A DNA stretch of 61,341 nucleotides from an uncultured Gammaproteobacteria bacterium (GCA_964610395.1 CAZSXP010000001.1:1-61341), one strand, 5' to 3'. Shown: positions 7,322 through 22,719, counted from the first letter of the stretch. Program-made: numbers and translations. The notes: generated from the letters alone by a model not told the origin.

Positions 7322-7785
7322 TGGAAAAAACAGTAGTACTAATTAAACCAGATGGACTTCAAAGAGGTTTGGTTGGGGAAATTATGCATAGATTTGAAAG
7401 AAAGGGTCTAAAACTTATTGGAATTAAGATGATTAGACTAACGGATGATATTTTAGAAAATTGGTATTTTCATCACAAAGACAAAGCATTTTTTAAGGAC
7501 TTAAAGGATTTTATGGAATGGACACCTGTTGTGGCCATGGTTTGGGAAGGGCTTGATGCAATAGCAGCTGTTCGTAAGGTTGTGGGTATTACAAAAGCCA
7601 GAGAGGTTGAGGCAGGGTCAATTAGGGGGGATTTTGGAATGAGTGGATCACAAAATATTATACATGCTTCGGACTCTGCAGAGTCTGCAGAAAAAGAATT
7701 GGGACTGGTATTTAATATCGATGAAATTTTTGATTACGATAGCTCTATGGATCTACTTATATACTCCAAAGAAGAAGTAAAATAA
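7318..7785 (+). CDS. ndk: Nucleoside diphosphate kinase
   Basis: IKPDG, GSIRGDF, NIIHASDS active-site His motif. Confidence 0.97.
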   Translation: MMEKTVVLIKPDGLQRGLVGEIMHRFERKGLKLIGIKMIRLTDDILENWYFHHKDKAFFKDLKDFMEWTPVVAMVWEGLDAIAAVRKVVGITKAREVEAGSIRGDFGMSGSQNIIHASDSAESAEKELGLVFNIDEIFDYDSSMDLLIYSKEEVK

Positions 7786-7793
7786 ATTTTTTG

Positions 7794-7865
7794 TCGGAAT
7801 GGGCAGAATTGAACTGCCTGTCTCTTCGTCCCGAACGAAGCGTGATACCGATTCACTACATTCCG
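7794..7865 (-). tRNA. tRNA-Pro(CGG)
   Basis: Acceptor CGGAATG/CATTCCG, anticodon arm CTTCG-TTCGGGA-CGAAG, T-loop TTCAATT; CCA not encoded. Confidence 0.92.
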
Positions 7866-7917
7866 AGCAAAGCGAGGAATGCCAAGCTTAGCCGTAGGCG
7901 GGCTTACAGTCCGCTTG

Positions 7918-7989
7918 TGTCCTCATCATGAGTCGAACATGAATTTGAGGTTTAGGAAACCCCTGTTCTGTCCATTGAACTATGAGGAC
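7918..7989 (-). tRNA. tRNA-Arg(CCT)
   Basis: Acceptor GTCCTCA/TGAGGAC, anticodon arm GGGGT-TTCCTAA-ACCTC, T-loop TTCGACT. Confidence 0.92.
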
Positions 7990-8251
7990 GTATTTGTATT
8001 TTACTATCTTTACAACTTATTAACCATTTTATATATTTTTTGCTTTTGTAAGATTTTAATTTTTGTTCTCTTTTCCTAGCTTCCATTATGGTTTTATATT
8101 CCTCTTTATAAACAAGTTCATACGTTTCTAAAACTCTCGTCGTTCTCGTATGGCCCAGTTTATGTTGTTTTATCCTACGTTTTAAATCAATCGTTGAACC
8201 AATATAATAACGATCTGTTTGTTGATTTGTCAAAATATAAAGATATGCCAT
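7952..8251 (-). CDS. Small GIY-YIG nuclease; 3' end runs into tRNA-Arg
   Basis: YLYIL...YYIGST..LKRRIKQH...ARKREQKLK signature of UPF0213-like GIY-YIG proteins. Confidence 0.88.
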   Translation of the reverse strand: MAYLYILTNQQTDRYYIGSTIDLKRRIKQHKLGHTRTTRVLETYELVYKEEYKTIMEARKREQKLKSYKSKKYIKWLISCKDSKIQIRPHSSMDRTGVS

Positions 8252-8255
8252 ATTC

Positions 8256-8328
8256 TTGTTCTACCAGCGAAGCTGGCAAGCTTGCTTATCCATTGACCCC
8301 GATTAAATCGGGGTTGAGCTATAGCGGC
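8256..8328 (-). pseudogene. Degenerate tRNA 5' half interrupted by two palindromic insertions
   Basis: Minus strand GCCGCTATAGC-TCAA-[CCCCGATTTAATCGGGG]-TCAA-TGGA-TA-[AGCAAGCTTGCCAGCTTCGCTGG]-TA-GAACA; without the inserts it aligns to the tRNA-Arg 5' half GTCCTCATAGTTCAATGGACAGAACA. Confidence 0.6.
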
Positions 8329-8342
8329 GTATTTGAATTATA

Positions 8343-9485
8343 TCATTTAATACTAAGTGAATATAAATTGGGGATAATGGAGTTAGAACCTAAGTTGGTT
8401 AAAATTAATAATTTGCTTGCATTAACAAACGGATATGCATGTGGGGCAATGTAATCGCCTGAAAAGACTGTTTGTCTATTAGTTCCATCGTAATCCATAA
8501 TTATAATTTTTCCTTCATCAGGAACTATTAAATGTCTTGAAGTTGGTAACCAATAAAGAGATCTGCCAGTGTCGCTAACCAAAAAGTTTCTATCTTCTTT
8601 GATATCGTAAATATAGGTGTTACCCACTTTGATATCCCTTTCTTCCTTCTGTGTTGAGCTTCCTGGTAGTTCTTCAATTAACCCTTTTTTAATATTTGCT
8701 TCACTGCTTGCAGTGTACATAACCATTGTTTCATCAGGCGAAAATGTAAAGTCACTAACATCTTTTTCTAGAATTGTAGCCATCTCAAGAGGTAACAATC
8801 TAAATTCAGATTCATCTTTTCTATTTTTTTCTAACTTCCAATTATTTAAAATAGTTGTCTTTTGAGCTATAACATTTACAAAATTATCTTGTGACGTAAA
8901 CTCATTTGTATTTAAGATATAGACCCCCTTTTTTGTCGTGAGCATAATCTCTCTACTGTTTGGAGAGAAGCTGTAACTTGATCCTATTAGTTCACCATCT
9001 GCAATTTTTTTAGGATCATTTGGAAAACCGATAGGCAGAGAACTAACAGTCATTATAAAGAGGCCTTCACTATTAGTATATGCAATCTTGCTAAAATCTG
9101 ACGAGACTACGGGATTTTCTGCTCCGTCGAAGGTAACTGGGGAAAAAGATGGTGCAACTTTGAATAGTTGAGCTGTAATTTGGGTTACTTCCTCTTTTTT
9201 AATGGTTAATCTTTTCTTCCATGAGATATATCCATTTTTCTTTATCTCGACATCATATGTATTAGGGGAGAGTTTTAAATTGGTATTGGTTGCACCTTTT
9301 AAATCACCATCAATAAAAATAGAAGCCCCATCAGAATCAGATTTTGCAACTAAAATACCATTTTCTAAAAAGGTAAAAGTATCTGTATCAAAACGATATC
9401 CTCTAGCAATTAATGATACAAAATAACCAATTACACCCACGACAATCATAGTAGACAAAAGTATAAAAACACGTAGTTTAGCCAT
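8343..9485 (-). CDS. PEGA-domain membrane-anchored protein with probable beta-propeller C-terminus
   Basis: N-terminal TM; G-L-x-x-x-S-D-x-x-GASIFIDG...YDVEIKKNGY PEGA pattern; FSPN/FSPD repeats. Confidence 0.8.
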   Translation of the reverse strand: MAKLRVFILLSTMIVVGVIGYFVSLIARGYRFDTDTFTFLENGILVAKSDSDGASIFIDGDLKGATNTNLKLSPNTYDVEIKKNGYISWKKRLTIKKEEVTQITAQLFKVAPSFSPVTFDGAENPVVSSDFSKIAYTNSEGLFIMTVSSLPIGFPNDPKKIADGELIGSSYSFSPNSREIMLTTKKGVYILNTNEFTSQDNFVNVIAQKTTILNNWKLEKNRKDESEFRLLPLEMATILEKDVSDFTFSPDETMVMYTASSEANIKKGLIEELPGSSTQKEERDIKVGNTYIYDIKEDRNFLVSDTGRSLYWLPTSRHLIVPDEGKIIIMDYDGTNRQTVFSGDYIAPHAYPFVNASKLLILTNLGSNSIIPNLYSLSIK

Positions 9486-10525: not shown

Positions 10526-10643
10526 AAACCTATAGCAAAAATTGTTGAAAATAAATCAATTGTTAATAGACTGAGGATAAGTATAAAAAAGTGAAGCTAA
10601 TATTTGAAGTAAAAATTTGTGCAAAATTGTTATTAAGGCGAAA

Positions 10644-10678
10644 ATATAGTATATAGCATATGGTATATAGTATATAGG
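10644..10678. repeat. Intergenic 7-bp tandem repeat (5 units)
   Basis: ATATAGT ATATAGC ATATGGT ATATAGT ATATAGG. Confidence 0.8.
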
Positions 10679-10781
10679 GAAGAACAAAGCAAAAAAATAC
10701 ATGTAAAAAACAAGAGTGCGGAGAAAAAAAATGATATTTTGACTATGAAAAGTAAGAAAAGATGATAAAAAATAGATAAAA

Positions 10782-11573
10782 ATGGCAAGAAATTATCCAA
10801 AAGTAGACCGAAAATATGGTTATATCCTAGGAATTAAGATATCTATCACTTCCAAGGAAGAAGTGCTAAATCTTATTAATTTGAGGCTAGAAAACAAAGA
10901 AAAGTTTTATATAGTAACTCCAAATCCTGAAAATTTACTACTAGCTACTAAAGATTGGTTACTGGCAAAAGCTATACGAAGGTCTGATTTGTCAATTCCT
11001 GATGGAATTGGATTAAAATTTGCATATAAATTTTTGCATAATGAAGATATTGAGATAATTAAAGGCAGGGAGTTGTTTTTAGAAGTAATTAAAATTGCAA
11101 ATGATCGTAAATTACGAGTATATCTCTTTGGAGGTGAGCATGGTGAACAAATTAAGACAAAGGAAGTGTTAGAAAAACAATATTCAAATGTAATATTTAA
11201 AACAAATTTTGAATTTCCTCAATATAACAAAAATTGTAAGCCTATCACGTATGAAGATAGAAATTTACACAAGAAGATAATTGGAGGTATAAAGCTCTTT
11301 GAGCCTGATTTAATCATTGTAGCTTTAAATACTCCAAAACAGGAAAAGTGGATTTATAGAAATTTTTTTAGGCTTAATGCAACAGGTGCTTTTGCTTTAG
11401 GTGGAACTTTTAATTATGTAGCAGGAAATATGAAATTGCCTCCTAAATGGATGGAAAAATTAGGACTTGAATGGGTCTGTAGATTAATTCAGGAGCCAAA
11501 GAGGTGGAGGAGGATAATTAATGCTGTGATAATCTTTCCTTGGAGCGTGTTTGTGTGGAAGTTACGAAAATAA
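10782..11573 (+). CDS. WecB/TagA/CpsF family glycosyltransferase
   Basis: VTPNPE, PDGIG, PKQEKWI, GLEWVCRLIQEPKRWRR. Confidence 0.93.
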   Translation: MARNYPKVDRKYGYILGIKISITSKEEVLNLINLRLENKEKFYIVTPNPENLLLATKDWLLAKAIRRSDLSIPDGIGLKFAYKFLHNEDIEIIKGRELFLEVIKIANDRKLRVYLFGGEHGEQIKTKEVLEKQYSNVIFKTNFEFPQYNKNCKPITYEDRNLHKKIIGGIKLFEPDLIIVALNTPKQEKWIYRNFFRLNATGAFALGGTFNYVAGNMKLPPKWMEKLGLEWVCRLIQEPKRWRRIINAVIIFPWSVFVWKLRK

Positions 11574-22020: not shown

Positions 22021-22059
22021 ATTGCAAGGTCAGTTAATTGCAGGGTCAGACCCTGCAAT
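22021..22059. repeat. REP palindrome plus half-site at RAYT 3' end
   Basis: ATTGCAAGGTCAG half-site (22021) then ATTGCAGGGT-CAG-ACCCTGCAAT (22037-22059). Confidence 0.9.
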
Positions 22060-22719
22060 AGTGTCGTCAGATAGGTCTAATTCTTCGTTAATATATTTAA
22101 ACTTTTCAACAAATTCTTTATATGATTTTACGTTATTATGTTTCATGAATGTGCTTTCGTTAAAGTAATCTAATATAACATTTTTATTTACCCAAGAGGT
22201 ATTATTTAAACCTAAATATGTAGAGTACGAAGAATAACCCTCAACTAAGTTTTTGGTGTATTTCAATGGATTTTTATGAATATAGCGCGACACATCTAAT
22301 AGGTAATCTTTATTTATTACATTCGTAGCTTTGTATCTACCTTGGAATAGGGGGCCAGACCGCTTGTATTTTTTATTAAAATACATTGAATACCTTGTAA
22401 ATAAAGATTTCGTAAATTCTTTAATAGAGTTCTTATCTTTTTGCTTGATTAATAAATGAACATGGTTTGGCATCAAACAAAAGGCAATTAAATCAATTTC
22501 ACCAAAATAATTTTTCCTAGGATGAAATTGCAGGGTCAGACCCTGCAATTTAGCTTCAGATTTAAAAAACTCGTTATTCGATAAGTATTCTTTTAAGTAG
22601 GAGAGGAAGACTTTATAGTCTTGTTCAACCAAAAAGATTTTCCTTTTTTCAACCCCGCGATTATAAACATGATAAATAGAGTTATCCATGTAATATTTGA
22701 CAGAACCCTTAGCTGGCAT
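22030..22719 (-). mobile_element. REP-associated tyrosine transposase (RAYT; IS200-like Y1 HUH family)
   Basis: YHVYNRG, FCLMPNHVHLL (HUH), GPLFQGRYKA, RYIHKNP, YSSY motifs; flanked by palindromes in inverted orientation. Confidence 0.92.
22527..22549. repeat. REP palindrome inside the RAYT gene
   Basis: ATTGCAGGGT-CAG-ACCCTGCAAT; translated LQGLTLQ. Confidence 0.9.

Follow-up and report, generated by a model that had tools for sequence, protein, structure and literature searches.

We identified a small GIY-YIG nuclease gene lodged between what appears to be a copy of the 5' part of a tRNA gene and the intact tRNA gene itself, in a stretch of 61,341 nt (hereafter the window) that is contig C1:1-61341 of a bacterial genome (G000; 695 kb, 32% G+C, 22 contigs, 43 tRNA genes). 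The explanation that we favour, with moderate confidence, is a selfish GIY-YIG cassette aimed at tRNA genes, in which duplication of the 5' part keeps the tRNA intact and the nuclease mobilizes both the cassette and a family of short hairpins that accompany it. Several features can be read directly from the genomes: the anatomy of the cassette, its presence or absence among relatives, its recurrence at many tRNAs, the target duplications, the indel polymorphism of the hairpins and the conserved active site.

The tRNA-Arg(CCT) locus and its empty counterparts

Read on the minus strand, the locus runs from the end of a PEGA-domain gene (9485..8343), the upstream neighbour of the cassette, through TGATATAAT, a leader, a relic carrying two inserts, the GIY-YIG ORF, tRNA-Arg(CCT) and a spacer to tRNA-Pro(CGG). 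The 7-nt leader, CAAATAC (8329..8335), is identical to 7996..7990. The relic that follows (8257..8328) is split by the inserts into nt 1-15 (8328..8314, ending in TCAA), nt 16-21 (TGGATA, 8292..8287) and nt 22-26 (GAACA, 8261..8257). The first insertion, of 21 nt (8293..8313), consists of a 17-nt hairpin, CCCCGATTTAATCGGGG (8313..8297), and a duplicated TCAA (8296..8293), the first TCAA copy (8314..8317) preceding the hairpin; it belongs to a family with 4-nt target duplications. The second, of 25 nt (8262..8286), consists of a 23-nt double palindrome (8286..8264) and a duplicated TA (8263..8262). Both insertions fold as hairpins. Five nucleotides after GAACA, the nuclease ATG at 8251 opens an ORF of 99 aa (7952..8251) that encompasses the catalytic domain only and whose last 38 nt lie inside tRNA-Arg, with the TAA (7954..7952) in the anticodon loop. 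The tRNA-Arg(CCT) gene (7917..7989; ARAGORN and Rfam, 61.5 bits) is intact and is the sole copy in the genome. Immediately upstream of it (7990..8003) stands the second leader copy (7996..7990), preceded by TAAAAT-A, so that 12 of 14 nt equal TATAAT-T-CAAATAC at 8342..8329; the match beyond the 7-nt leader was made by eye. A 51-nt spacer (7866..7916), which lies outside the cassette, separates tRNA-Arg from its native neighbour, tRNA-Pro(CGG) (7793..7865; ARAGORN and Rfam, 60.5 bits). An earlier sequence-only reading had described this layout (leader, split half, TCAA and TA duplications, GIY-YIG start 5 nt later, ORF stopping within the tRNA) correctly to the nucleotide.

The motif TGATATAAT (8337..8345), read from the sequence, resembles an extended -10 element, overlaps the PEGA stop codon and lies 8 nt upstream of the relic. 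It is probably the native tRNA promoter, now driving the cassette. A promoter and terminator scan at the relic returned nothing useful, and TGATATAAT went unlisted by this simple scan because it has no -35 match. A conserved TGGTATAAT occupies the equivalent position in three tRNA-His loci.

The spacer between the two tRNAs varies among relatives: it differs in the sister genomes, and contigs of the public runs X5 and X6 skip 49-50 nt of it, with 11 other letters there in X6. Part of the spacer is the complement of tRNA-Pro's first 6-7 nt, and an AAGCTTG motif within it is shared with the 25-nt insert, a likeness that is loose and was judged by eye. We considered that the spacer (7866..7916) might hold a 3' remnant of the relic tRNA and dropped the idea, the match being poor and the spacer variable.

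With the inserts removed, leader and half match the leader and 5' part of tRNA-Arg at 27 of 33 positions, and every other 33-mer of the 695-kb genome scores below 24 of 33; the resemblance reported by the sequence-only reading, including the 7-nt leader, is therefore unique in this genome. The relic itself is identical to tRNA-Arg at 20 of 26 positions. With its inserts in place, the half gave no Rfam tRNA match (RF00005) at E<=10 in region 7600-8600, where the search returned two tRNAs, one chance snoRNA match and nothing else. A tRNA origin is suggested by the 27/33 identity together with the equivalent copies at other loci described below, and on this basis we regard the half as the upstream copy of a duplicated target-tRNA 5' part and not as the leftover of a separate tRNA gene.

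The window relic has decayed. By eye, its acceptor strand has lost the ability to pair with the tRNA 3' strand; moreover, the relic has diverged at 6 of 26 positions and has three derived bases in common with the relic of locus L027, so that it was inherited or transferred here rather than freshly made. At three orthologous tRNA-His loci, relic and hairpin are invariant while the flanks on both sides have strongly diverged, which hints at selection or gene conversion and not at a neutral scar. The decayed relics (window and L027) and the invariant tRNA-His relics thus point in opposite directions on relic function. Elsewhere in the genome (G000:C1:~163570-163581), a 12-nt copy of the tRNA-Leu(TAG) 5' end, with 1 mismatch, lies 5 nt before that tRNA, and may be the footprint of a lost cassette.

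To compare the locus among relatives, we combined a DNA search of 40 genomes, including seven of the same genus (G001-G007), with inspection of the locus. In six of these seven (G001, G002, G003, G005, G006 and G007), tRNA-Arg(CCT) lies within a few tens of bases after the PEGA gene, inverted in G005, and both nuclease and half are absent; in the seventh, G004, the locus is interrupted by a contig end. The sister-genome comparison that the sequence-only reading had proposed thus yielded empty sites. In G003, homology jumps from window position 8334 to 7997, with query positions 1-167 abutting 504-709, and in an X6 contig of a relative (record 22) homology ends at 8333. The block missing from the sister genomes (7998..8333), which comprises relic, hairpins and ORF, measures ~336-339 nt, with a repeat period of 339 nt. 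G000 and G001 are reciprocal: G000 carries the cassette at Arg(CCT) and has an empty Arg(TCT) site, and G001 carries a 69%-identical nuclease with the same hairpin at Arg(TCT) (L062) and has an empty Arg(CCT) site. The gene is therefore present or absent at an otherwise conserved locus, as are Seg-type genes.

The PEGA locus is also variable in its tRNA. G002, the closest relative, and G007 carry a different tRNA-Arg(CCT) type there, and tRNA genes at this locus appear, from these sequences, to be undergoing replacement. In G002 (L008, G002:C51, segment positions 70-210), the 3' part of a window-type tRNA-Arg remains behind the different tRNA-Arg(CCT) allele.

A direct PEGA-to-tRNA-Arg junction was found in none of the contigs of X3, X5, X6 and X8; contigs drop rare variants, so that a missing empty-site contig is uninformative either way. 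A 634-nt contig of X5, a run from another study than the probable source, covers 7916-8354 with 11 differences over 439 nt. The X5 contig (record 12) lacks exactly 8262..8286, and has extra letters within hairpin 1 that resemble a nested copy. The second insert is thus a true indel. One X5 contig joins 7989 to 8585 (side 31), a joint from which we draw no reading. In the RNA runs X19 and X20, only 0.06-0.08 of the sequence words were present.

The nuclease and the recurrence of its layout

The ORF matches the Pfam GIY-YIG family (PF01541) over residues 1-73 of 99, with 51.2 bits against a cut-off of 22.6 (E 1.5e-13). Y5, Y16, G18, R26 and H30 are kept in 39/39 homologues and E62 in 38/39; we take the Tyr of GIY, the Tyr-x-Gly of YIG, the Arg and the Glu to have catalytic roles. 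In the homologue alignment, the conserved part is the ~75-aa catalytic domain only, with short and variable tails, and neither Pfam nor the alignment revealed a separate DNA-binding domain of the kind found in Seg-type homing endonucleases. A match to NCBIfam grpIintron_endo (25.3 bits) falls below the cut-off of 56, and we rejected a group I intron-encoded endonuclease since 7600-8600 contains no Intron_gpI match at E<=10; as a positive control, the same Rfam method detects the true group I intron in the tRNA-Asp of this genome. Two other GIY-YIG paralogues in G000 (~32% identity) do not have the cassette layout. The best solved relatives are UPF0213 structures, PDB 1zg2 (BH0048, E 0.0028) and 1ywl (EF2693, E 0.0075), to which similarity is weak; they are of similar size and their Y..YxG..R..H..E motifs align with those of the nuclease.

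We assembled 72 loci, comprising 42 related loci, 29 from a search of genomes and the window; these are partly dependent, as L024 and L062 apparently come from one genome and L021, L023 and L025 are orthologous. The order of 5' tRNA copy with hairpins, GIY-YIG gene and intact tRNA recurs widely among them. A same-strand tRNA lies within 150 nt after the nuclease stop at 38/72 loci, most at -38 to +18, and a tRNA ends within 150 nt before the nuclease start at 22/72; counting either side, 55/72 loci have one. The downstream tRNAs fall into 21 anticodon classes. At 19 loci the nuclease ORF ends inside the tRNA, 11 of them with the TAG at tRNA nt 8-10 as the stop codon. The 17 loci with no nearby tRNA are mostly Bacteroidota-type or contig-end cases. 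Together with the empty sites in 6/7 same-genus genomes and the reciprocal arrangement at Arg(TCT), the same-strand tRNAs within 150 nt at 55/72 loci bear out the earlier proposal of a tRNA-targeting element.

The upstream copy recurs as well. The first set of loci includes 26 that have a tRNA downstream; 22 of these carry a copy of tRNA nt 1-13 (<=2 mismatches) 37-151 nt before the nuclease start, and the other four carry diverged tRNA copies, recognized by eye. In spliced alignments, most copies are 100% identical to the adjacent tRNA over 16-31 nt. Zero leader bases are in common in 14 of 22 aligned pairs, so that the copy begins exactly at +1; its 3' end varies from nt 16 to about 50, and it ends 1-20 nt before the ATG. 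The layout has variants. L028 has a relic and no hairpin, and the L024 ORF has relics on either side, the second (1470-1553, with a slightly decayed hairpin) lying between nuclease stop and tRNA-Arg(TCT). In a distant subfamily (L067, L068, L072 and L073; 38-43% identity), the order is relic, tRNA, nuclease. The nuclease ATG of these four loci lies 0-10 nt downstream of the intact tRNA 3' end. Two of them, L068 and L073, also have a relic ahead of the intact tRNA, with a hairpin where the anticodon arm would be.

The hairpin repeats

The hairpins form a family of 17-nt near-perfect palindromes with YCCGA/TCGGR stems, the two 8-nt arms being inverted repeats. At least one CCGA..TCGG hairpin (stem >=5 bp) lies within 150 nt before the nuclease start at 33/72 loci, which together have 53 such hairpins; the remaining 181,062 nt of the 72 loci have 30, which amounts to a ~30-fold enrichment before GIY-YIG starts. 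The tRNA D-loop supplies TCAA or TCAG, which accounts for the position of the first hairpin in the window relic and in other relics. A nested form of the hairpin is found in L027, at the same tRNA-Arg/tRNA-Pro locus, and nesting is also seen in L023 and L037.

The core, CCGATTNAATCGG, has seven copies in G000. They lie in the window relic (flanked by TTGA/TTGA on the plus strand), in frame in a pilin-like CDS (TTTA/TTTA) and in a second CDS (TTGG/TTGG), inside the RNase P RNA (L003 1476-1492, G000:C5:7175-7191), inside the tRNA-Asp group I intron (TAAAT/TAAAT; L004 1425-1700, G000:C6:~10625-10900) and at two further sites, one flanked by TCAA/TCAA. Exact flanking repeats accompany five of the seven, four with 4 nt and one with 5 nt. 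The two CDS copies (G000:C1:102209-102225 and G000:C3:58612-58628) form in-frame 21-nt units that add TPI[K/Q]SG (TPIKSG and TPIQSG). In the pilin-like gene, the unit sits just before the FTLVELL motif and provides the Gly that precedes Phe. The RNase P RNA (107.8 bits) has its hairpin where the model expects a longer helix. The tRNA-Asp(GTC) gene, which ARAGORN misses, has its anticodon loop split by the group I intron (Rfam, 81.7 bits).

Across 41 relatives, the count of hairpin cores ranges from 0 (20 genomes) to 44, against 0-1 for a reversed control. Among all 44 copies in G039, exact flanking repeats of 4 nt accompany 25, of 5 nt one and of 3 nt three, and 16 of the 25 exact 4-nt duplications are TTGA or TCAA. 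Several G039 copies are nested in the loop of another, the centre of which restores TTGA. The earlier claim that hairpins insert with target duplications is upheld by the exact repeats (5/7 in G000, 25/44 in G039) and by the natural variant from which the 25-nt insert is absent. The search for both hairpins elsewhere that it suggested found the first, with its seven core copies in G000, and not the second, which matched only itself in G000 with up to 3 mismatches allowed. The inverted arms and the duplications (25/44) might suggest a MITE-like element; an autonomous element with the hairpin's ends was not found. At 17 nt, the hairpins are far below the usual MITE size.

Hairpin abundance tends to follow the nuclease. 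All five genomes with a close nuclease homologue (>=61% identity) carry at least 7 hairpins, against 6 of 36 others that carry at least 4. The hairpin type beside the nuclease gene is also the type dispersed in the genome, reciprocally in five Microgenomates-type versus five Saccharibacteria-type genomes, a comparison in which hairpin type and nuclease clade are confounded with phylogeny. In G000, G001, G029, G035 and G039, respectively, the ATT-type core occurs 7, 14, 7, 9 and 44 times and the CCCGAC type 0, 0, 0, 2 and 0 times; in the five Saccharibacteria-type genomes, the ATT type occurs 1, 0, 0, 0 and 0 times and the CCCGAC type 7, 7, 5, 9 and 12 times. There are counterexamples: G021 has 11 hairpins and no homologue at E<=1e-8, and G010 has 9 hairpins and only a 32%-identity homologue.

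Proposed mechanism, rival explanations and known systems

We propose that the window holds one copy of a cassette family of ultra-small (Patescibacteria/CPR-type) bacteria. A GIY-YIG gene of roughly 85 aa, encoding the catalytic domain only, would come to lie between the tRNA promoter and the tRNA gene by an insertion that duplicates the tRNA 5' part from mature nt +1 to around nt 16-36. The downstream tRNA would thereby stay whole and the upstream copy would be a dead relic, with which the nuclease mRNA presumably begins; the ORF, in many cases without a stop codon of its own, would terminate within the tRNA. A separate family of 17-nt palindromes would insert at TTGA/TCAA with a 4-nt target duplication, and the tRNA D-loop (GC-TCAA-TGG) would be one such target. 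Since only the dead copy tolerates a hit, hairpins would accumulate and nest there. The nuclease would mobilize itself and the hairpins, recognizing the latter as structured DNA.

That the nuclease is active, what it cuts and how the duplication arose are matters on which we infer from the sequences. The enzyme might cut tRNA genes and then home into them, or it might make staggered nicks, one at +1 and the other somewhere from the D-loop to the anticodon; the duplication might instead be spread by homing from filled to empty alleles. The +1 boundary is unmarked in duplex DNA, which favours recognition of folded single-stranded or cruciform tDNA, and such recognition would fit a structure-specific enzyme that consists of the catalytic domain only. 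An 85-aa catalytic domain with no DNA-binding domain makes sequence-specific homing in the manner of I-TevI or SegB doubtful. Some observations speak against the favoured explanation. The intact downstream tRNA retains any intra-tRNA target, which leaves self-immunity unaccounted for, and the variable 3' end of the copy does not suit one fixed staggered cut. The invariant tRNA-His relics, the decayed window and L027 relics, the hairpin-free L028 and the gene order of the distant subfamily also fit poorly.

An unlikely alternative, in our judgement, is that relic and hairpins form a functional cis element, whether a structured 5' UTR to which the nuclease binds, with a role in autoregulation or mRNA stability, a segment that pairs within the primary transcript with the downstream tRNA 3' half, or a recognition or guide module steering the nuclease towards tRNA genes. 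The invariance of the tRNA-His relics and hairpins amid diverged flanks would be expected of such an element, as would the 100% identity of most relics to the adjacent tRNA despite 25-60% divergence of the proteins, the correspondence of hairpin stem type with nuclease clade and the folding of the 5' UTR into two hairpins (z = -2.68). However, the window relic has 6/26 mismatches and an acceptor strand unable to pair with the tRNA 3' strand, hairpin content differs among near-identical elements and is nil in L028, copy length ranges from 16 to about 50 nt, and hairpins with target duplications also occur far from any nuclease gene. It is very unlikely, though it would be the smallest guided nuclease system if true, that the hairpins are a loading handle and the flanking tRNA bases an RNA (5' UTR) or DNA guide aiming the 85-aa nuclease at tRNA genes; this would explain both the identity of relics with the neighbouring tRNA and the hairpin type following the nuclease clade. 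A less extreme version makes the GIY-YIG protein the transposase of the 17-nt hairpins, in a partnership like that of REP and RAYT but with another enzyme fold.

The hairpins could instead be REP-like repeats moved by a Y1 (HUH) transposase-like protein, with the GIY-YIG gene merely beside a neutral landing site, an idea to which we assign a low probability. It has a precedent in REP/RAYT, as described in the accessible text of PMC3733652. The window does encode a 229-aa Y1_Tnp-like ORF with an HVH motif (22030..22719, minus strand; IS200/RAYT-like Pfam match), and similar genes of ~225 aa occur in 32/41 relatives; G004 has 33 Y1_Tnp matches, mostly to a 145-aa IS200-type gene. But the window gene lies 14 kb from the nearest hairpin, and Y1_Tnp matches and hairpins are uncorrelated over 41 genomes: a match is present in 9/11 hairpin-rich genomes and in 23/30 others, G035 and G010 have 9 hairpins each and no match, and G025, G027, G031 and G040 have 5-8 matches and zero hairpins. 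We accordingly rejected REP/RAYT membership, there being no family hairpin near the Y1 ORF and no correlation over the 41 genomes. Single-strand HUH transposition (IS200/IS605) is not known to give exact 4-nt target duplications such as those seen here, and the ~30-fold enrichment lies just before GIY-YIG starts. We give almost no credence to ordinary tRNA-gene turnover, in which the half would be the remnant of an older, replaced tRNA gene and the nuclease gene an unrelated neighbour. The different tRNA-Arg(CCT) type in G002 and G007, the 3' remnant of the window-type tRNA retained in G002 and the merely 20/26 identity of the window relic would agree with turnover, but it fails on the three-part layout at 21 anticodon classes with relics equal to the adjacent tRNA, on the start of the copy at +1 and on the repeat of the 7-nt leader.

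If the favoured explanation of a selfish, tRNA-directed cassette is right, it would represent a widespread and undescribed class of selfish element of the candidate phyla radiation, one that parasitizes tRNA promoters without killing the tRNA. A full-text search of open-access PMC and bioRxiv found no account of a GIY-YIG gene that has a tRNA 5' duplicate on one side and the tRNA on the other, nor of 17-nt hairpins that carry 4-nt duplications in this group of bacteria. The loci would offer a natural series of mobile hairpins of about 20 nt whose insertion rule (TTGA/TCAA, 4-nt duplication) is directly readable; in genomes of <1 Mb, these hairpins alter proteins, by 7-aa in-frame inserts, as well as RNase P RNA and an intron. 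The loci would also suggest a testable function for the small GIY-YIG (UPF0213-like) proteins, a large family of orphans, and they warn of an annotation trap of tRNA fragments and ORFs that run into tRNA genes.

Among known systems, small stand-alone GIY-YIG proteins of the UPF0213 kind (1zg2 and 1ywl) resemble the cassette nuclease in size and motifs, with weak similarity, and the same open-access literature gave no function or tRNA linkage for them. Integrase-type islands and prophages insert in tRNA genes that are kept intact by a duplicated tRNA segment; their duplicate is of the 3' part and is carried on the element, and their recombinase is of the tyrosine or serine type. The cassette, by contrast, has a duplicate of the 5' part that agrees with the local tRNA, whichever that is, and its block contains no recombinase. 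REP/RAYT elements, as far as the available part of PMC3733652 describes them, are short GC-rich palindromes that are dispersed and cluster beside the gene of a presumed mobilizing enzyme. The cassette hairpins are alike in being dispersed, short, GC-rich and clustered beside an enzyme gene, but they differ from REP/RAYT as so described in accompanying a GIY-YIG and not a Y1 HUH protein, in their 4-nt target duplications and want of a GTAG/CGTC tag, and in their length of 17 nt, their restriction to one flank of the gene and their setting within a tRNA fragment. The mobile GC clusters and hairpin elements of yeast and sponge mitochondria, which are short, GC-rich and spread in AT-rich genomes (PMC4478555, PMC2800124), likewise are very short and land in genes and RNA genes; going by the portions of those papers at hand, they differ in being organellar, longer and free of an associated nuclease gene or tRNA-fragment context.

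The nearest known case is SegB of phage T4, which the accessible text of PMC2330249 describes as a free-standing GIY-YIG homing endonuclease encoded among clustered tRNA genes, with a recognition site that includes a conserved tRNA motif, the TpsiC stem-loop; it is present or absent among relatives and spreads along with neighbouring tRNA genes. The cassette shares with SegB, as portrayed there, the free GIY-YIG gene among tRNA genes and the presence or absence among relatives. It differs in that SegB is a full-size phage homing enzyme, whereas the cassette protein has ~85 aa, consists of the catalytic domain only, resides in a bacterial chromosome and is known from sequence; and in that the cassette, unlike SegB in that account, lies next to a duplicated tRNA 5' part and is accompanied by hairpin repeats. 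Judged on these comparisons, the cassette appears akin to free-standing GIY-YIG elements and to small palindromic mobile repeats, both of them known kinds.
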